From Escherichia phage vB_Eco_SLUR76, in sequence record LR025195.1: 60,165 bases of DNA, one strand, 5' to 3'. Shown here piece by piece: positions 2,628 to 33,172 of the stretch. How positions within the stretch are numbered: position 1 is the first letter of the stretch; each line of letters starts with the position of its first letter. The translations under genes were made by a program, and so were the position numbers. The notes under the pieces are model-generated. The model was not told where the DNA came from. It did no database searches and saw only the letters and a program-made list of their open reading frames with translations.

Positions 2628-4970
2628 ATGGAACTGTTTCCCGCTGAAATTAAAGCTTTCCCACAATGGGCGGTCGCCGATGCGGACAAAAAGCCGCTGG
2701 TATGGGATAGCGATATTGGACGTTTGATGGCGGCGGACGTTACCGATCCGGATATGCTTATGACGTTTGAAGCTGCCAAAGGTTGCGCCGCTCATTTCAA
2801 TAAACCTTATATTGGATTCGTGCTTACTGCACAAGACCCGTTCACCTGCATCGACCTGGATGTGAAGAACGCAACCAATGAACCTGATCCCAAGAAACAC
2901 ACGACGCCAGAGCAGTTGCGCCGCTTCGAACAGATCATGACTGCGTTCGATACTTACACCGAAGTAAGTCGCTCAGGCCTGGGTGTCCACCTGTGGTTAA
3001 GAGGTAACATCGGTAAAGGTCGTCGACGTGATGGTGTCGAGGTTTATAGTCAGGAGCGTTTTATTATCTGCACGGGCAATCCTGTCTACAACAAACCAGT
3101 TGCAGAACGTGATCATTACCTTACTATGCTTGTGAATGAAATTGATCTTCAGCGCAAGACATATGAAATTGAACTGGTAGAAAAAGATCCGGTAGAAGAT
3201 GATGCAACTATTCATCAGCGCGCACTTGAAGCAGATAACGGCGATAAGTATGCGCGGTTATTCAATGGTGAATGGGTTGAAATGGGTTTCCCTTCCCAGT
3301 CTGAAGCAGATCTTGCCCTTATTTCTATGTATGCATTCTACACGGAAAGTAATGAGCAATGTCGTCGTCTGTTCCGTTATAGCGCACTGGGCAAACGTGA
3401 GAAGGCTAATAAGAACAATGTTCATATTGACCGTTGCTTGCGCATGTGTCGCGGTCGCATGGAGCGTGAGCGCATTGCCCAGGAAAACGTAGCGGCGCTG
3501 GCGCGGGATTATGCTGCCCGTATGCAAGCGGCACACAGTGCAATGCAGCAGGTAGCGGAAATGCCCGTAACTGTTGAAACAACACAGGGGCAGACAGTAG
3601 TTGCAGAAAGTACATCTATTGATGCAACCGCTATTGACTGGCCGCCGGGACTTGCTGGGGAGCTTGCGAAGTACATCTACAAAGCATCCGTCCGACCAGT
3701 GAAAGAAATTTCTATTGTGACAGCACTAGGATTTATGGCTGGTGTATGCGGGAAGGTTTGGCAGATTCCACAATCGGGTCTTAATGGATATTTCGTCCTT
3801 ATTGCTCGTTCTGGTGTTGGTAAAGAAACGTTGAACAGTGGGCTATCTAATATAGTTAGCCAGCTTCAGGAACCGTTTCCGCAGATTCATAGCTTTGTAT
3901 CCTTTGACCGATGCGCTTCCGGCTCCGCACTGCGTAAATCTTTTGCGGACAAACAATCTTTTATCAACTTGAACGGTGAGTTTGGTAAGATTATTAAAGC
4001 AATGGCTACGGCGCCAGCAGGTTCACCGATGCAAAGCTTCAAGAACGACCTTACCGATGTTTATCAAAAGTCCGGTCAGATGTCTATTGTCGGTGGTATG
4101 TCTTATTCTGATAAGGCTAATAATACGGAAGCTCAACAAGGTGTGGCCTATAGCATCATGGGCGAAACGACACCGGATACGTTCTTTGAAGCATTAACCC
4201 GTGAAATGATGGAGGATGGTTTCTTATCCCGTTTCCATGTTGTCCGCTATGAAGGGGATCGACCGCCTTTAAACAAGAACCAGCAGACTACAATGGATCA
4301 GCATTTGCGGGATATGGTGTGTCATCTTGTTAACCACACCTTAGTCGCAATGGCAAAGCATCAAAGTATTGAAGTGCAGTTTAGCCCGGATGCGGAAGCA
4401 TTATGCGATCAGTTTAACGATGAATGTGACCGTAATATTAACGCAACCAAAGACGAAGCGATCCGTCAGCCGTGGAACCGTGCGCACCTGAAGGTGTTAC
4501 GTCTATCCGCCCTGTTAGCTGTGGGAGAAAACTGGATCAATCCGGTTGTGCAGACCTATCATGTTCAATGGGCCTTGGACTTTGTGCGTCATGGACAGGA
4601 TATCATTATGAAGGAATGGCATAGTGGGGGTATTGGTACTAATGACGAAGCTCGTATCCGTACTATGTGCCAGGTTTGTGTCAATTATCTAACTAAAGAT
4701 TGGGTGAAAGTTAAACGTGTAGATCTGCGTAAGGAAGGAATTATCACGAGGGGTGATATTACTACTCGTCTTGCAAGTAAGTCCGCGTTTAAAAACTATC
4801 ACCACGGATTGTCCGCAGCAATTGAGTCTACGATCAAGGAGATGGTTGCTATGGGTGCTCTTGTTCCGGTAACACGGGAGGAGACTATCAAACTGGGATT
4901 CACTGGCGCAGCTTGGCGCATTACGCAAGATGTTGAAGGTATTATAGCAAACTTAGGAGAAGAGGAATAA
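2628..4970 (+). CDS. Primase-polymerase (archaeo-eukaryotic primase fold) with C-terminal P-loop/helicase-like domain
   Basis: AEP motifs CIDLDV (DxD), SGLGVHLW (SGxGxH), ERFIICTG; later P-loop-like ARSGVGKET; 780 aa. Confidence 0.6.
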   Translation: MELFPAEIKAFPQWAVADADKKPLVWDSDIGRLMAADVTDPDMLMTFEAAKGCAAHFNKPYIGFVLTAQDPFTCIDLDVKNATNEPDPKKHTTPEQLRRFEQIMTAFDTYTEVSRSGLGVHLWLRGNIGKGRRRDGVEVYSQERFIICTGNPVYNKPVAERDHYLTMLVNEIDLQRKTYEIELVEKDPVEDDATIHQRALEADNGDKYARLFNGEWVEMGFPSQSEADLALISMYAFYTESNEQCRRLFRYSALGKREKANKNNVHIDRCLRMCRGRMERERIAQENVAALARDYAARMQAAHSAMQQVAEMPVTVETTQGQTVVAESTSIDATAIDWPPGLAGELAKYIYKASVRPVKEISIVTALGFMAGVCGKVWQIPQSGLNGYFVLIARSGVGKETLNSGLSNIVSQLQEPFPQIHSFVSFDRCASGSALRKSFADKQSFINLNGEFGKIIKAMATAPAGSPMQSFKNDLTDVYQKSGQMSIVGGMSYSDKANNTEAQQGVAYSIMGETTPDTFFEALTREMMEDGFLSRFHVVRYEGDRPPLNKNQQTTMDQHLRDMVCHLVNHTLVAMAKHQSIEVQFSPDAEALCDQFNDECDRNINATKDEAIRQPWNRAHLKVLRLSALLAVGENWINPVVQTYHVQWALDFVRHGQDIIMKEWHSGGIGTNDEARIRTMCQVCVNYLTKDWVKVKRVDLRKEGIITRGDITTRLASKSAFKNYHHGLSAAIESTIKEMVAMGALVPVTREETIKLGFTGAAWRITQDVEGIIANLGEEE

Positions 4971-27603: not shown

Positions 27604-27807
27604 TTAGAATATACGAAAGAAAGCACCGTATGGGTATACGCCAAAAGTATTGAAAACAGGCGGTGCAAAAGCATTCACAAACACAGGAGTTGGCGCTACT
27701 GGTTGAAAAGTTTTGCAATTACACGCTGCTTGAGCCAATTGCCCCTGAAGTATACCTGCTTGTGTTGCAGGACTGCCTAGACAGCAACGGTTAGTATTAC
27801 CACACAT
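27604..27807 (-). CDS. Small Cys-rich protein
   Basis: RBS aaggagg 7 nt before ATG; 8 Cys in 67 aa. Confidence 0.5.
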   Translation of the reverse strand: MCGNTNRCCLGSPATQAGILQGQLAQAACNCKTFQPVAPTPVFVNAFAPPVFNTFGVYPYGAFFRIF

Positions 27808-27818
27808 AGTAGACCTCC

Positions 27819-28103
27819 TTAAAGGTCGCTTTCGTTATCCTGCTTGGAACTGGGCTTTTCAGCTTCAATCATCCCAAGTACCGCAATAACTTTAACAGCA
27901 ATACGCTGAGCTAGACTGATTTGCTGCTGGGTTAATTTTCCGGTCGAAACCACAGTCATTAACCCGCTTAAGTTTCCAAGAGACTTAAAATCGCTGAATG
28001 CAGATTTCATAATTGTAAGTTGATCATGACCTTCGTCTGCTATAACATGAGCACGAATAGAAAGTCCTTCAACGACTTTATCAATACCTTCATTCTTCGT
28101 CAT
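27819..28103 (-). CDS. Hypothetical protein
   Basis: RBS aggtga before ATG. Confidence 0.5.
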   Translation of the reverse strand: MTKNEGIDKVVEGLSIRAHVIADEGHDQLTIMKSAFSDFKSLGNLSGLMTVVSTGKLTQQQISLAQRIAVKVIAVLGMIEAEKPSSKQDNESDL

Positions 28104-28620
28104 TTGGTTTCACCTTCTGCTCCGGTTTCTGAGGGACCGTTTGAGCGGTCTTTGGTTGCAGCACTTCCTGATCAATCATGGGTGGCCACGGGCTAATATG
28201 CTCGCGTGCTTCTACAGGCTGCTCCGGTTGCATACCAAGAAACTTACTAATAAAATCCCCTGCGAAGTCTGTGCCATCGCTGACGTAAACATGCATACGA
28301 TCAAGATCTGATTGACTAATGGAGTTTGGAGCAATTGTAATCTTGAACTGGTGGAAGCCGACATACATCACATTCACGGGTCGTTCGATAGTGCCCGGCG
28401 TAGGCGGTATCACTCCCATAATCCAACAGTAATGAACCCTTCCATCACCCATAGGTTCACATCCAGCATTAAGCCAGCTCACCTTCTGGTGTGGGAACAT
28501 GGTAGTTGAATCGGTAGCGTCCCGACGTAACGTCCAATCAACACCGCCCATGTTGATGGAGTTTTTCGGTTTCATCCCGTTGAACTGGGTTACGCCCATT
28601 CCTGCGTTTACGTTTTGCAT
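28090..28620 (-). CDS. Hypothetical protein
   Basis: RBS aggaag before ATG. Confidence 0.55.
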   Translation of the reverse strand: MQNVNAGMGVTQFNGMKPKNSINMGGVDWTLRRDATDSTTMFPHQKVSWLNAGCEPMGDGRVHYCWIMGVIPPTPGTIERPVNVMYVGFHQFKITIAPNSISQSDLDRMHVYVSDGTDFAGDFISKFLGMQPEQPVEAREHISPWPPMIDQEVLQPKTAQTVPQKPEQKVKPNDEE

Positions 28621-28635
28621 GTCGGCTTCCTATTC

Positions 28636-29004
28636 TTACATATCTTTCATTTTTTGAAGAGCACAAGTACAAGCTGCGGCAAGATCGGTCAACTCTTTCA
28701 TGATCCCTGCGCGGTCGCCTTCTTTCTTACACTCCATTAATTCGCGGTATTCCATTTCAACAATGGACATCATACCGCCGGGCTTGTCGTGGTACGCCGC
28801 CCACGTATGCGGAGGTTCTTCCATCCGGTCAAGAACATTTGACATAGCTGCCATATGTTCATGATCTCGAGCATAAGAGTGAGCATGTTTATATTCCTCT
28901 TTCTCATGTTCATGGTGGTGCTCACCTACGCTAATGCGAGGTAAAGCAACCTTAGGCAATTTGACCCGTGGCATTCCCATCGTTGCAATTTTAATGTGGC
29001 TCAT
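28636..29004 (-). CDS. His-rich hypothetical protein (possible MazG-like or metal-binding)
   Basis: RBS agaggtag; N-terminal HHHEHEKEEYKHAH. Confidence 0.5.
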   Translation of the reverse strand: MSHIKIATMGMPRVKLPKVALPRISVGEHHHEHEKEEYKHAHSYARDHEHMAAMSNVLDRMEEPPHTWAAYHDKPGGMMSIVEMEYRELMECKKEGDRAGIMKELTDLAAACTCALQKMKDM

Positions 29005-29075
29005 GATACTACCTCTGTTAAAAGCGCCCCAAGCGGAGGAGCGAAAGGCGCTTTAGTTTAACCACACTTCAGCGA

Positions 29076-29783
29076 TTAGCAGCAGCCAGTCGGAGGAGTT
29101 GGAGGAGTTGGCAGTTTAAAGTTAACTAACTGCTCAACCTGATTGATTTTACAGGTAAGGCCAGCCGTCTGCGCCAACTGAGAGTTTGCAAAGCGAGCTT
29201 CCTGCAACTGGGACTTCAGGTCACAGATCAGAACAGCTTGCGCTTGTGCGTGCTGATCGCGCAGGAGAGCACGAGTAGCTTCTGCTTGACGCTCGATGTT
29301 TAGGTTGGTTTCGCAGCAACACTTCTGAGCTTCTAACTGAGCCTGGAAAGAACGGGTAATGTTAGCCGCTTCGTTGCTACACAGAGCCGCGAGCACTTGG
29401 CTGGTGCCGCCCTGGATCTGCGTGTTCAGACCAGCAAAGCCCTGAACGGAAGCGAGTAGGTTTTGAGTGTTCTGCTGAGTAATACCGTTATAGGTAGAAG
29501 CAGCGGAGCGCTCAACAGTCAGGTTAGTACCGTTCTGCCCCTGAATGGTCTGAAGAGTACCGTTGTTGATAGCTTGCAGAATTGCGTTGGTGTCAACAGA
29601 AGCTTGCACTTCCACCGGGCCAGCGAAGTTACCGCGACCACCCCAACCACCATTGCCGCCCCAACCATTACCGATCCAGGAACCAATTAAGCCACCGATC
29701 GCGCCACCGATACCAGCCGCACCAGCTTCACCACCGAAACCGTCGCCACCGAGATTAGTAGGTAAAAGAGTCATGTCAGACAT
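29076..29783 (-). CDS. Glycine-zipper / coiled-coil protein ending in Cys-Cys
   Basis: RBS ggagat; GGAIGGLIGSWIGNGWGGNGGWGG then Q/N-rich coiled coil and terminal GCC. Confidence 0.5.
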   Translation of the reverse strand: MSDMTLLPTNLGGDGFGGEAGAAGIGGAIGGLIGSWIGNGWGGNGGWGGRGNFAGPVEVQASVDTNAILQAINNGTLQTIQGQNGTNLTVERSAASTYNGITQQNTQNLLASVQGFAGLNTQIQGGTSQVLAALCSNEAANITRSFQAQLEAQKCCCETNLNIERQAEATRALLRDQHAQAQAVLICDLKSQLQEARFANSQLAQTAGLTCKINQVEQLVNFKLPTPPTPPTGCC

Positions 29784-29955
29784 AGGAAAATCTCCATATA
29801 TGGATTTGTTAAGCGGATGTAACCAACTGGTTACGAAGTAAAGCATACCCCTTAACATGCTTTTTACAATGATCCAAATGTAAAGATTTTGTAAATTAGG
29901 ATTGACAGTCAATAAAAAGCGCGCCCCGAAGACGCGCTGAGGAAGTTAGATGTGG

Positions 29956-32856
29956 TTATGGTAGTGATTCTTTATTAACAAGCGTCGCAACTAACTTTTT
30001 GAGTTCCTCAACTTCAGTTTCAAGTTTTGTAATGCGGTCATCTGCTTCACGACAAACCTGAACCAGAAGACCGGTTACCGCGGAGTAGTCGACGCTAAGG
30101 TAACGTTTACCAAAATCCAAGGTTATATCATTACCTTCTACGTCCTGACCATCCATATATTCATGCTTTGTGAAACTGCTAACAGCTTCAGGTAGTGCTT
30201 CCATAACTTCCTGAGCAATTACACCAGCATAAGGTAGACCGTTCTCCTTAAGTGTATATGTATAACCATTCATTTTCCGAATTGCTTCAGTAGCTGAACT
30301 TATTACCTGTATGTTATCTTTTAAGTCTCTATCGGATGACTGATTAACTGTAACACAGTTAACAGCACCATTTACTTGAAGTTGTAGGCTGTTATCCGGA
30401 TTCTGTTGACCATAAAAAATCCAAGTATCCGATGCATCCGTGTCGGGGTTTTTTACTTTACATTCAATAACTGTCGGTCTATCGGAGTTACCCCAAGTAT
30501 ACAGTTCAATATTCTTAGCAGAATTTCCGCCAGTTAATATGCGCGTAATTCTACCACCATTAACCACAGATAAATTATTTGTTAATAATCTATTGTTAAA
30601 TGTATTTGGCTGTGTCCATATATTTTCAATATCCAAAGCTGCTAACTGATGCCAGGGTGAATCAGTTTTCGATGCTTGTGGATTATCGGAGAGTAGGAAA
30701 CGGTAGTACATTTTACCATCCGCACCAATCCACGCTTGACCAATCCTTGATGTAGCATAGCATGATTGGAACCCTGCCCCATATGTAGGAACCCATGAAG
30801 GATTTGTTGATCCATCGCTAATAAAGCAATCGCGACCGTCCAGAGGTGTATTGGCTCCAAAAGATGAAGTAAGTAGCTTCAACCATTCGCCATTTGTACT
30901 AGCTTCGATTGTTCTAATAAAAGCATTGTTCCTACGACCTGCTATTTGAAATGCGTAGTTTCCGCTAAAACCTACATGTACACCACCATAAACAACATTT
31001 GTAGAATGTTCAGGACCGTTAACGCCTCCAGCAATCCCGTAGAATTTATTCACGGTATTGATTTGACCGTTCCAATCGGATCCAGTTGCTGATAACAATC
31101 CATTTGGGGAACTAAATGTTCCATCCAGATTAAAGTTAAAAAATTGATGTCTGGCAGCAGATGACATATCACGCACAACAATCTGTCCATTGCTATCTCC
31201 TGCGCGAAGTTCTGTCTGATCCAATGTTATATTTTTTTCAGCATTTGTTCTTCTGCTTATAAAAGATCTACCTTCAGTAGAATCGCTATACCCTATAAAT
31301 CCCTGTGTTGCTTGTATTTTTCCAAGTAATGTGAAACTAGGAATTGACGCAATAAAAGAATCACCTGTAGACAGATTATTTGTTAGTGCAAAGTTTTGTG
31401 AACTTCCTTGTCTAAATGGAGAATTGCTATAGAATCCACTACCACCACCTTCAAAGTTAAGGATGTTTGTAACGTTATTCTCCGTGTCACCTTCAGTTGG
31501 AGCGGACACTCCAAACTTAAAACGAACACCATTAGTACCTAAAACATAGTCTTCAATTGGTACTATGACATTTGCCTTGTAACCAACTTGAATCCTAATT
31601 GGAAAAGCTTTTTTGTGGATATAAAAAGCTATATGATTGCTATAATCCTTTTTAGAACCTTTGACGCAAAGTATTCCAACTTCTTTTGGATCATAAGTTG
31701 CTAGATAACCAAAAGCAGCATCTTTCAAATCTGACCAACCGCCACAACGAATGTATCCAAAGAACGAACTATTATTCATCGGATCGTTTGCTGGTGCACT
31801 TTTAGTGACAATATCAACAGGGCATAGCATGTTCCCATACCCGTTCATATTACCTGTATAGATTATAATAGGATAATATTTTTCATCCTCTGACCCTTCC
31901 GGGGCGTTGATGGTTATGATGTTTGACAAACCACCTTCCGGGATTTGGAGATTGGTCTTAGCGTCTGCTATTGTTAAAGCTCCAGTCCCACCTCTATTGA
32001 CAGGTAAAGGAAGATATCTACTACCAGAGACGTCAAATGCGCCCCAACTTATATTATTTTCAACTATAATTTTTGCATTACGATTTGGAGAGTATAAAGC
32101 TGTCTCTGTGCTTGCTTGCGCTAATCTGTCTACTTGACTATAAAGAACACCTTTCCACCATACAGTTCCAGTTTGAGCGGTCCATTTGTAGCTATAAACA
32201 GTTCCTGTCACATCACCTATAAACAAGCCAATAAAGCCCGGGCTTCCGTCCATAGGGGAAATAAAGCCACCTAGAACGTTATCACTATTAGCAATGCCCG
32301 GATACCCGACGGTTGAACTTCTAAGTATTCTTAAAAAACCCAGGAAGCTAGAAGGATTAACAGTAATATCTGCGACATGTCTTGCGCTGCTAGTTAAGCC
32401 GATAGATGCCTTCATGCCATTAGCGGTGTCTTCTGCCTTTTTAGCAGCAGCTTCTGCTTTAACTCTCTCCTGCTCGGATTTAGTAGCAGAAGTAGATGAA
32501 GCGTTCTTAGCTGTTTCGGCTTGTGAAACTAAATCTCTAACCTGTGCAATAACTTCCGGAGTTAATTCTTCCGGGGCCCATGTGGTTAAATAGTTATTCA
32601 GCGTACCTTCTTTACTGTCCGCGTAAATAGCAATTTCACCAGCTTTATAAGGCTCGCTACCTTGAGGCCCAATAATAACCTTGTAATAGCCTGTCTGGAC
32701 GGTGATGTCATAAGTTCCGGTTGCACTTGTTTTAAAGATAGCTTCGCTGCTGGATAATACGGTAAGACTGTTTCCTTTAGCTAAAAGCGCAACTGTAGCG
32801 TTGATAATTGGTTTGCCCAGTCCATCACGCAAAGTACCATATAAACGAGTTGCCAT
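29956..32856 (-). CDS. Long tail fiber protein with C-terminal S74-type intramolecular chaperone domain
   Basis: 966 aa; C-terminus SDRDLKDNI...GVIAQEV...LSVDYSAVTGLL matches the autoproteolytic chaperone domain of tail fibers; RBS gggaga. Confidence 0.8.
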   Translation of the reverse strand: MATRLYGTLRDGLGKPIINATVALLAKGNSLTVLSSSEAIFKTSATGTYDITVQTGYYKVIIGPQGSEPYKAGEIAIYADSKEGTLNNYLTTWAPEELTPEVIAQVRDLVSQAETAKNASSTSATKSEQERVKAEAAAKKAEDTANGMKASIGLTSSARHVADITVNPSSFLGFLRILRSSTVGYPGIANSDNVLGGFISPMDGSPGFIGLFIGDVTGTVYSYKWTAQTGTVWWKGVLYSQVDRLAQASTETALYSPNRNAKIIVENNISWGAFDVSGSRYLPLPVNRGGTGALTIADAKTNLQIPEGGLSNIITINAPEGSEDEKYYPIIIYTGNMNGYGNMLCPVDIVTKSAPANDPMNNSSFFGYIRCGGWSDLKDAAFGYLATYDPKEVGILCVKGSKKDYSNHIAFYIHKKAFPIRIQVGYKANVIVPIEDYVLGTNGVRFKFGVSAPTEGDTENNVTNILNFEGGGSGFYSNSPFRQGSSQNFALTNNLSTGDSFIASIPSFTLLGKIQATQGFIGYSDSTEGRSFISRRTNAEKNITLDQTELRAGDSNGQIVVRDMSSAARHQFFNFNLDGTFSSPNGLLSATGSDWNGQINTVNKFYGIAGGVNGPEHSTNVVYGGVHVGFSGNYAFQIAGRRNNAFIRTIEASTNGEWLKLLTSSFGANTPLDGRDCFISDGSTNPSWVPTYGAGFQSCYATSRIGQAWIGADGKMYYRFLLSDNPQASKTDSPWHQLAALDIENIWTQPNTFNNRLLTNNLSVVNGGRITRILTGGNSAKNIELYTWGNSDRPTVIECKVKNPDTDASDTWIFYGQQNPDNSLQLQVNGAVNCVTVNQSSDRDLKDNIQVISSATEAIRKMNGYTYTLKENGLPYAGVIAQEVMEALPEAVSSFTKHEYMDGQDVEGNDITLDFGKRYLSVDYSAVTGLLVQVCREADDRITKLETEVEELKKLVATLVNKESLP

Positions 32857-32938: not shown

Positions 32939-33172
32939 ATGAAACACGCTCTAATTATGCTGGCATTATGTTTGTCCCTTACTGCATGTGGTAATGGTTT
33001 AAATACTGGTAAACCTAATTCCGGTGTCGTTCCAAAACCTTTGGATCGCGATGGTAACGGTTCTTTAATTTATGATACCGAAAAGCTTCCAATGACTGGG
33101 CAATGGTGTCATGAAATTGATCACGAATACCGACGAATTGGCTCACCTTCAAACTGTGTGATTGATTATTGA
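32939..33172 (+). CDS. Small outer-membrane lipoprotein, Llp/Cor-like superinfection-exclusion candidate
   Basis: Signal peptide with lipobox LTAC; 77 aa; opposite strand, wedged between receptor-binding tail genes. Confidence 0.55.
   Translation: MKHALIMLALCLSLTACGNGLNTGKPNSGVVPKPLDRDGNGSLIYDTEKLPMTGQWCHEIDHEYRRIGSPSNCVIDY

Follow-up and report, generated by a model that had tools for sequence, protein, structure and literature searches.

GlyCC, a glycine- and cysteine-rich protein predicted to head a mobile accessory cassette in virulent enterobacterial phages

The 60,165-nt sequence of Escherichia phage vB_Eco_SLUR76 (LR025195.1; hereafter 'the window') is 100% identical, with a 2-nt offset, to Escherichia phage vB_Eco_SLUR26 (LR025198.1; Seuratvirus, Queuovirinae), the name used below. 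Next to its lateral tail fibre gene lies a gene for a 235-residue protein that we call GlyCC; the GenBank coding sequence (VAY28107.1) has the product name 'hypothetical protein'. An earlier note on this DNA had proposed a fibre-associated adhesin or chaperone, or else a bacteriocin-like membrane-active protein. It is well supported that GlyCC heads a mobile accessory cassette in virulent enterobacterial phages and is not a tail component; very probably it is an autonomous accessory unit without a link to the fibre. As to its overall nature, we tentatively hold it possible that GlyCC is a membrane-associating, oligomeric accessory protein of the 'moron' type, located at the envelope of the infected cell.

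Proximity to the fibre gene, to which the earlier note had drawn attention, is genuine, GlyCC lying 172 nt 3' of it, but the two genes are separated by a strong rho-independent terminator. The GlyCC proteins of SLUR26 and CAjan are 99.6% identical, while the fibres of the same phages share 33-39% identity over parts only; GlyCC thus does not co-vary with the fibre. The upstream fibres carry chaperones of their own, either a Peptidase_S74 domain (SLUR26) or a separate Tfa protein (phage 9g and its relative L016). Adjacency to a cognate fibre is not obligatory either, since GlyCC can also follow a virion RNA polymerase gene or a terminase large subunit gene, or stand in isolation. No match of GlyCC to the Tfa or gp38 families was found in Pfam, the tail category of PHROG or NCBIfam.

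These observations bear directly on the proposal that GlyCC is a chaperone of the lateral tail fibre or a distal adhesin. The proposal draws on the position of GlyCC directly 3' of the lateral fibre gene in Seuratvirus, Nonagvirus, Hanrivervirus and other Drexlerviridae, and of a remnant in T5-like phages; on a single GenBank record (vB_EcoS_PJ16) with the product name 'lateral tail fiber chaperone'; and on a deletion in SHIN8 that takes out parts of the fibre and of GlyCC together. However, in PJ16 itself the preceding gene has the annotation terminase large subunit (weak Terminase_6N match) and is not a fibre gene, other copies reside in an N4-like podovirus and in an isolated island, and the terminator together with a predicted promoter separates GlyCC from the fibre. 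With the lack of co-variation, the chaperones already present, the absence of a Tfa or gp38 family match and the existence of phage 9g without the gene, the adhesin or chaperone role is largely refuted and scarcely credible.

The fibre gene itself is strongly mosaic, even though the Seuratviruses compared are nearly identical elsewhere. In comparisons with CAjan and two other loci (L003 and L010) the first ~270 residues are 33-77% identical and the rest is often unalignable; BLAST did not detect in the CAjan fibre the S74 domain that is present in SLUR26. The boundary of fibre recombination coincides with the terminator 5' of GlyCC. On the other side of the fibre gene, between it and the gene for the J-like tip protein, a 77-residue lipoprotein is encoded on the plus strand (32939-33172; lipobox LTAC, PHROG 12984), at the position where superinfection-exclusion lipoproteins of the Cor/Llp type sit in T1- and T5-like phages.

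Every enterobacterial-phage locus examined has the same arrangement: GlyCC followed by homologues of ORFs (open reading frames) of 122, 176 and 94 residues. Strict co-occurrence of the four genes extends over at least seven phage lineages, the most diverged case being a pair with ~33% identity on a metagenome contig. The places where this cassette resides are diverse. It is found 3' of lateral fibres of the S74 type in Seuratvirus, Nonagvirus, Hanrivervirus and other Drexlerviridae and, in decayed form, in T5-like Epseptimavirus; 3' of the N4-type virion RNA polymerase gene in three loci (L038, L039 and L041); 3' of a gene that carries a terminase large subunit annotation (with a weak Pfam match, to Terminase_6N) in Nonanavirus PJ16; after a DUF6260 gene (Segz_1-like); and after a Gly_rich_2 tail protein gene in eiAU. 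In Yersinia phage vB_YenM_12 the cassette forms a plus-strand island amid small minus-strand genes, with nothing related upstream. The cassette is present in JenP2 and L016 but not in their relative 9g, whose Tfa gene is followed directly by the end of the genome and the DNA polymerase gene. Such presence and absence among relatives, along with at least six different upstream neighbours, is a trait of morons. No copy of GlyCC was found in 5,426 complete E. coli genomes or in 72,556 plasmids. GlyCC is therefore regarded as a gene of lytic phages, and on the same ground we rejected the possibility of a lysogenic-conversion gene.

Sequence signals predict that GlyCC forms a transcription unit of its own, with the promoter-ORF-terminator layout of a moron. 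Between the fibre terminator and the ribosome-binding site lie a predicted sigma70-type promoter and a stem-loop, the latter where the mRNA is predicted to start; the stop codon is followed at once by a GC-rich hairpin and a T run (Table 1). GlyCC is thereby flanked by a terminator and insulated from the upstream operon, as morons are. The whole intergenic stretch between GlyCC and gene 2 has a folding energy of -22.5 kcal/mol, and an equivalent of the hairpin with its T run follows the GlyCC ORF in 14 of 15 lineages. The cassette genes downstream of GlyCC probably depend on read-through.

The upstream signals recur in diverged cassettes from other genera. There, a -10-like hexamer is followed 5-8 nt on by a stem of 5-8 bp (loci L005, L006, L011, L024, L025, L028, L033, L035, L038, L040, L052, L053 and L054), and most of these cassettes also carry a -35-like TTGnnA. 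Stem sequences vary while pairing is kept: GTAAC/GTTAC, GTAGC/GCTAC, GTGGC/GCCAC, GCGAAC/GTTCGC and CCACC/GGTGG. Among 16 sequences, with stems chosen by a best-hairpin search, 97.5% of the cells were paired and double changes were seen in all five pairs; none of the 500 shuffles scored as high, and the slid controls collapsed. A phage-wide 'promoter plus hairpin' motif was rejected, as a scan of the window found no shared pattern elsewhere. A longer ORF, started by TTG and reaching 29912, was also rejected: the MSDM start is conserved in the family, and the extension covers the conserved promoter and hairpin.

Annotation and evolutionary signatures indicate that GlyCC is a real gene under purifying selection: there is a GenBank coding sequence, a match to PHROG 9288, a large set of homologues and a low ratio of non-synonymous to synonymous substitution rates (pairwise dN/dS 0.03-0.26). 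The match to PHROG 9288, a family with no assigned function, is full-length (E 3.7e-130; residues 1-235 versus profile positions 1-233/234). Homologues form 169 clusters at 90% identity, and 219 phage records were detected by tblastn. An exhaustive profile search gave 124 clusters of the family at 50% identity, with members mostly of 200-290 residues.

The protein begins with MSDMTLLPTNLGGDGFGGEAGAAGIGGAIGGLIGSWIGNGWGGNGGWGGRGN, where MSDMTLLP is the conserved acidic N-terminus. A glycine-rich uncharged tract (residues ~12-52) precedes a predicted Q/N-rich helix (65-223) and the tail PTPPTPPTGCC; landmarks in the helical part are QGFAGLN, CCC (155-157), ICD (186-188) and C211. In an alignment of close relatives, invariant or nearly invariant elements are the start M-S/T-D-M-T-L-x-P, the glycine tract closing with a conserved Arg, QGFAGLN, CCCETNLNIERQ, ICDLK and NFKLPTPPTPP. 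In the broad family (187 sequences) the short acidic N-terminus and QGF-GLN persist, followed by CCC (duplicated in some members), EGAATRxLI and LCDAKAKI. An uncharged stretch of ~29 residues is present in 187 of 187 members, with ~35% Gly within the first 60 residues. Relatives still further off come from gut viromes and bacterial assemblies (a Coprococcus comes prophage, Clostridiales, Odoribacter and metagenome-assembled genomes of Lentisphaeria/Victivallales). They match PHROG 16490 and, more weakly, PHROG 9288, neither of which has an assigned function. For two distant relatives, contigs of ~1 kb were retrieved, and in one of these a homologue of gene 2 follows.

The features first read from the sequence, namely glycine-rich N-terminal repeats, a Q/N-rich stretch, KCCCE and a terminal GCC, are all present in the 235-residue protein, and the remark that its composition is unusual is borne out. 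The composition is far from chance for SLUR26: glycine makes up 21 of the 41 residues in 12-52 (a stretch that includes GGAIGGLIGSWIGNGWGGNGGWGG), compared with at most 10 in any 40-residue window of the other ORFs, and GlyCC tops all ORFs of the window in both Gly and Q/N content. In the Q/N-rich region, 41 of 164 residues are Q or N. Two other elements of the early description hold in part. Of the 'Cys-rich ends' only the terminal GCC is at an end; the triplet, one of the groups among eight cysteines (KCCCE at 154-158), is in mid-protein. As for the coiled coil, an AlphaFold2 monomer model built on a 16-sequence alignment does have a single long helix (65-223) after a disordered segment (1-64), but its confidence is low (mean predicted local distance difference test score, pLDDT, of 55) and the 3.5-residue heptad periodicity is weak and patchy. 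A coiled coil may thus be taken as a possible reading of the model.

The glycine tract has spacing of the GxxxG type (GIGGAIGGLIGSWIG) alongside weak hydrophobicity, and GlyCC has no match to the Pfam Gly-zipper families. In distant relatives the tract holds a strongly hydrophobic core with Gly/Trp flanks (e.g. WFWIIILAFLFC, WWIWIILLFCFW and GMLVILFLILIMGFGG); across the family, the uncharged stretch grades into hydrophobic cores such as IWVILLFILLAGG and WWIWIILLFCFW. We lean slightly towards GlyCC associating with the membrane because these homologous segments are hydrophobic; the SLUR26 sequence does not predict it directly. The N-terminal flank is acidic, without Lys or Arg, and a conserved Arg follows the tract; this charge pattern weakly favours an N-out/C-in orientation.

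A membrane-active protein, as the earlier note suggested, is consequently plausible, given an uncharged tract that is hydrophobic in distant relatives, but its bacteriocin-like character has not been borne out: GlyCC lacks a double-glycine leader and matches neither Bacteriocin_IIc nor any other Pfam family that would mark a class II bacteriocin or microcin, and the cassette has no exporter or peptidase gene; nor is there an immunity gene. A related possibility is a membrane-permeabilizing toxin that would act through a glycine-zipper pore, either bacteriocin-like or as an auxiliary factor of lysis or lysis timing. The abundance of GxxxG in the N-terminal tract would suit such a toxin; recurrent inactivation of the gene (see below) could reflect toxicity, and the promoter/terminator layout would imply high, separate expression. 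Nevertheless, we find it quite unlikely: the marks of a bacteriocin and any bacteriocin or holin family match are missing, a complete canonical lysis cassette resides elsewhere in the related phage SeppeHuegi, and, at 235 residues and with an extended, conserved helical domain, GlyCC does not look like the small pore-forming peptides known.

The cysteines show two patterns of conservation. CCC is near-invariant family-wide. The terminal CC is not, and it tracks C211: both are present in 85 members and neither in 97, with three exceptions. This covariation suggests that the C-terminal tail folds back onto the helix, via a disulfide or a shared metal. That the N-terminus is membrane-associating and the helices form a Cys-stabilized oligomer is, taken together, moderately supported.

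Cysteine doublets and triplets beside helical oligomerization regions are typical of extracellular, covalently linked oligomers. This would suit an association of GlyCC with the virion, as a disulfide-knotted fibrous or decoration protein or as a 'pilot' protein that is ejected and inserts into membranes. After late packaging or attachment, its fusion-peptide-like N-terminus would act on the target membrane in natural hosts that bear O-antigen or capsule. In favour of a virion protein, the cassette mostly borders structural genes (tail fibre, virion RNA polymerase, terminase/portal and tail proteins), the homologues in Firmicute-type prophages are inside the head-morphogenesis module, there is the weak resemblance to HA2 and HR1 described below, and loss on K-12 would parallel the side-fibre loss known in laboratory phage stocks. 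We consider it unlikely, however, since the predicted promoter and flanking terminators separate GlyCC from the structural operon, the vB_YenM_12 copy lies among small early-type genes, and 9g and the truncation mutants are fully viable. Searches of the accessible literature (on Seuratvirus/CAjan, 9g, 9NA-like phages, the BASEL collection and CRISPRi-ART) yielded no statement on GlyCC and no virion proteome.

The prophage homologues have a setting of their own. In a Coprococcus comes prophage (L056, 7668-8336) and in two further loci (L058 and L059), distant homologues with two CCC triplets and a hydrophobic core lie in the head-morphogenesis module, between genes for 'phage minor capsid protein 2' and scaffold-like genes; a small ORF with a weak BclA_C-like match comes next.

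GlyCC has been inactivated or lost repeatedly. In SeppeHuegi (Bas24; L003, region 3397-3536) a CAG to TAG change at Q83 interrupts a gene that is otherwise 98-100% identical. In JakobBernoulli (Bas07; L005, 5815-6519), a phage of another family, the codon corresponding to Q81 is a stop, and WildeMaa (Bas23; L060, 2426-3009) has a deletion from about residue 90 of GlyCC into gene 3. In GenBank the fragments from these BASEL phages are annotated as separate hypothetical proteins, one of them as 'putative sugar-binding protein'. In SHIN8, the fibre N-terminus is fused to GlyCC residues 164-235. T5-like Salmonella phages have either copies with several stops and many changes at invariant positions or a 50-residue remnant, and deletion variants are present in metagenomes. 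Together with the low dN/dS, this pattern indicates that GlyCC is functional yet dispensable, and repeatedly lost. All three BASEL truncations retain approximately the first 80-90 residues, which may be due to chance because the events are few and the first Gln codon is at residue 60. Recoding or suppression of the stops was considered and rejected: there are no tRNA genes in the window, the T5-like copies have missense changes at invariant sites, and Gln codons are one transition from a stop.

One variant, P0122 (223 residues, on 61-kb contigs), joins GlyCC up to CCCETNLNIER to gene 3 from PVNVMYVGF; this fusion apparently arose by deletion between two IER-encoding microhomologies.

The partners of GlyCC offer few indications of function. 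Gene 2 is MazG-like (PDB 2p06, E 1e-4; Pfam MazG, 4e-4 in two members; MazG or PRA-PH in some) and is annotated as 'putative pyrophosphatase' in SeppeHuegi. Its tract reads HHHEHE...HAH...HEH here and HHHHHYHHGHH in Nonanavirus copies; conservation of the His-richness, with no conservation of the sequence, suggests metal binding. For gene 3, an AlphaFold2 model (pLDDT 73) searched by Foldseek against PDB and BFVD returned uncharacterized orthologues only, and there was no informative sequence match. PHROG 4128 ('tail fiber protein') is matched at its C-terminal end by the low-complexity tail of gene 3 (residues 114-176; E 2e-7) and at its N-terminus by the fibre gene; deletions that fused fibre and cassette, as in SHIN8, may have supplied the sequences from which this PHROG was assembled. 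The optional gene 5 starts with MCGNTNRCC, then has a Q-rich middle, CNC and a Pro/Phe-rich hydrophobic tail, echoing the Cys/Gln character of GlyCC.

Given these partners, GlyCC could alternatively be a cytoplasmic, possibly membrane-tethered, metal- or redox-binding scaffold that forms one machine with the MazG-like enzyme and the two other proteins, for example in nucleotide-directed counter-defence or metabolic takeover. The strict four-gene co-occurrence in at least seven lineages speaks for such a machine, as do the MazG-like gene 2 with a His-rich tract kept in kind and the invariant His, Cys and Asp of gene 3; in a cytoplasmic domain, CCC and the other Cys clusters might act as metal ligands, and the charge distribution favours C-in. 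On the other hand, distant homologues of GlyCC lack the other three genes, a conserved terminator stands between GlyCC and its partners, and none of the proteins matches a known defence or counter-defence family. On balance this scaffold seems improbable.

Returning to the tentatively preferred envelope protein, its action could proceed as follows. Host RNA polymerase would transcribe GlyCC from its own sigma70-type promoter, and the 5' stem-loop would stabilize or regulate the message. The terminator after the stop codon would pass only some of the transcripts to the 3-4 downstream genes, leaving GlyCC in excess. To judge from distant hydrophobic homologues, the Gly-rich N-terminus would join or insert in the cytoplasmic membrane, the Q/N-rich helical part of ~160 residues would oligomerize, and CCC with the covarying C211 and terminal CC would lock or regulate the oligomer through disulfides or bound metal. 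The assembly might then alter the envelope of the infected cell; our guess would be superinfection exclusion in the first place, or tuning of lysis or envelope integrity. The repeated loss would be accounted for if this effect were beneficial in natural hosts but superfluous or a burden on laboratory K-12. As a claim in itself, a superinfection-exclusion or envelope-modifying role, drawn by analogy, is rather doubtful.

Several points weigh against this reading. Five of the six cassette contexts border structural genes, which would be just as compatible with a virion role and late expression, and the envelope model leaves the role of three co-inherited genes, one of them MazG-like, unexplained. 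The GlyCC promoter is a consensus match that falls below the thresholds of two consensus scans, one of them stricter; the palindrome could be an operator on DNA that co-evolves with its regulator and not an RNA hairpin. The hydrophobicity of the glycine tract in SLUR26 is weak (Kyte-Doolittle mean 1.1-1.3 for the best 19 residues), and its sum of ~+4.5 kcal/mol on the Hessa scale does not predict insertion by the translocon. Disulfides would not form in a cytoplasmic C-terminal domain. Searches of GlyCC and its cassette partners with Pfam, NCBIfam and PADLOC gave no usable family, and a PDB search with the single GlyCC sequence gave noise only. No annotated homologue points to a function of GlyCC.

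Table 1. Position of GlyCC, its signals and neighbouring genes in the window
Feature	Coordinates	Strand	Length	Description
GlyCC (target gene)	29076..29783	-	235 aa	ATG at 29783, TAA 29076-29078
GlyCC ribosome-binding site	29792..29795	-		GGAG, 8 nt 5' of ATG
Rho-independent terminator of lateral fibre transcript	29918..29938	-		AGCGCGTCTTCGGGGCGCGCT + TTTTTATT; terminator scan; also annotated in SA80RD
Predicted sigma70-type promoter	29842..29869	-		-35 TTGTAA (29869-29864), 16-nt spacer, -10 TATGCT (29847-29842)
Stem-loop	29819..29834	-		GTAACC-agtt-GGTTAC; 7 nt past -10; unique in window; predicted mRNA 5' end
GC-rich hairpin + T run	29021..29054	-		straight after GlyCC stop; intrinsic terminator or attenuator; annotated terminator in SA80RD
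Lateral tail fibre gene	29956..32856	-		phage_tail_N and C-terminal Peptidase_S74 intramolecular chaperone domain
Cassette gene 2	28636..29004	-	122 aa	variable His-rich N-terminal tract and MazG-like all-alpha domain of nucleoside triphosphate pyrophosphohydrolase type (ExxE...ExxD)
Cassette gene 3	28090..28620	-	176 aa	beta-rich domain; invariant His, Cys, Asp
Cassette gene 4	27819..28103	-	94 aa	small protein, PHROG 7239
Cassette gene 5 (optional)	27604..27807	-	67 aa	PHROG 25697; only Seuratvirus and Nonanavirus copies

If GlyCC is indeed a unit apart from the fibre, 'lateral tail fiber chaperone', a label now entering annotation pipelines, is the wrong name for it, and swaps of fibre modules for host-range engineering can leave GlyCC behind. 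The cassette would be a compact mobile module, under purifying selection yet dispensable in the laboratory, in at least seven lineages of virulent enterobacterial phages; the carriers include therapy-relevant Seuratvirus, Drexlerviridae and N4-like phages. Genes of importance in natural hosts (phage competition, counter-defence) typically have such a profile, which makes the module a good target for functional screens. By the same token, the BASEL stocks of Bas07, Bas23 and Bas24 may not show the wild-type phenotype because their GlyCC genes are truncated.

Among known systems, the fibre assembly proteins (Tfa, gp38) and the S74 intramolecular chaperones are brought to mind by the place of GlyCC directly 3' of a lateral fibre gene in several lineages, and gp38-type adhesins have Gly-rich motifs too. 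GlyCC, however, has a single N-terminal Gly tract and not C-terminal Gly motifs interleaved with hypervariable loops, and it differs from Tfa and gp38 in the missing family match, the lack of co-variation with fibres, its separate transcription unit and its occurrence without fibres.

The i-spanin Rz is an envelope-acting protein with an N-terminal membrane segment, a helical domain and conserved cysteines that link its subunits. By analogy, GlyCC may share with it the phage-encoded combination of these three elements. In contrast to Rz, GlyCC lies outside the lysis cassette, has no partner lipoprotein and has an acidic, not a basic, N-flank; moreover, it has relatives in Gram-positive prophages, where spanins are not needed. 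In SeppeHuegi, a close relative, genes for endolysin, holin, i-spanin and o-spanin are at the opposite end of the genome. We rejected a spanin or holin on the strength of that separate lysis cassette; the absence of a lipobox, the acidic N-flank and the weak hydrophobicity of GlyCC also speak against a spanin.

In searches of all PDB sequences with the broad-family profile (A2) and with that of an independent distant subset (A5), the top hits were nearly all class I fusion subunits. HA2 of influenza A and B was matched over residues 4-91, the fusion peptide and the next helices (E 0.009-0.06, ~19 bits), and heptad repeat 1 (HR1) of coronavirus S2 was matched as well (E 0.026); the profile of close relatives (A1) produced no hit in PDB. 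Like the class I fusion subunits, the GlyCC family would combine a Gly-rich, Trp-containing hydrophobic N-terminus with a long Q/N-rich helix and then a Cys cluster; unlike them, GlyCC has no C-terminal hydrophobic segment or transmembrane anchor, and there is no sign of a trimer of hairpins. The resemblance is marginal, one of composition and architecture, and may be taken as a lead for mechanism with no evidence of homology. We regard it as very unlikely, though conceivable, that GlyCC belongs to an unrecognized family of phage membrane-inserting or fusogenic proteins built like class I fusion subunits (Gly/Trp N-terminus, HR1-like helix, Cys cluster). Such a family would span Gram-negative, Gram-positive and Bacteroidota-type gut phages (PHROGs 9288 and 16490) and would remodel or fuse host membranes apart from spanins and holins.

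Finally, GlyCC can be compared with morons and membrane proteins of superinfection exclusion, such as the HK97 gp15 type, T4 Imm and Sp, T5 Llp, and Cor. GlyCC shows no sequence similarity to any of them, is much larger, and has in addition a long Q/N-rich helical domain and CCC; SLUR26, furthermore, already has a separate lipoprotein gene in the style of Cor/Llp (32939-33172). GlyCC was also found here only in virulent phages and always with three more genes. Still, it resembles the HK97 gp15-type moron and its counterparts as a small accessory gene with a terminator and a predicted promoter of its own in or at the tail or host-recognition region, with a putative membrane-directed N-terminus, dispensable for plaque formation and patchily distributed among close relatives.

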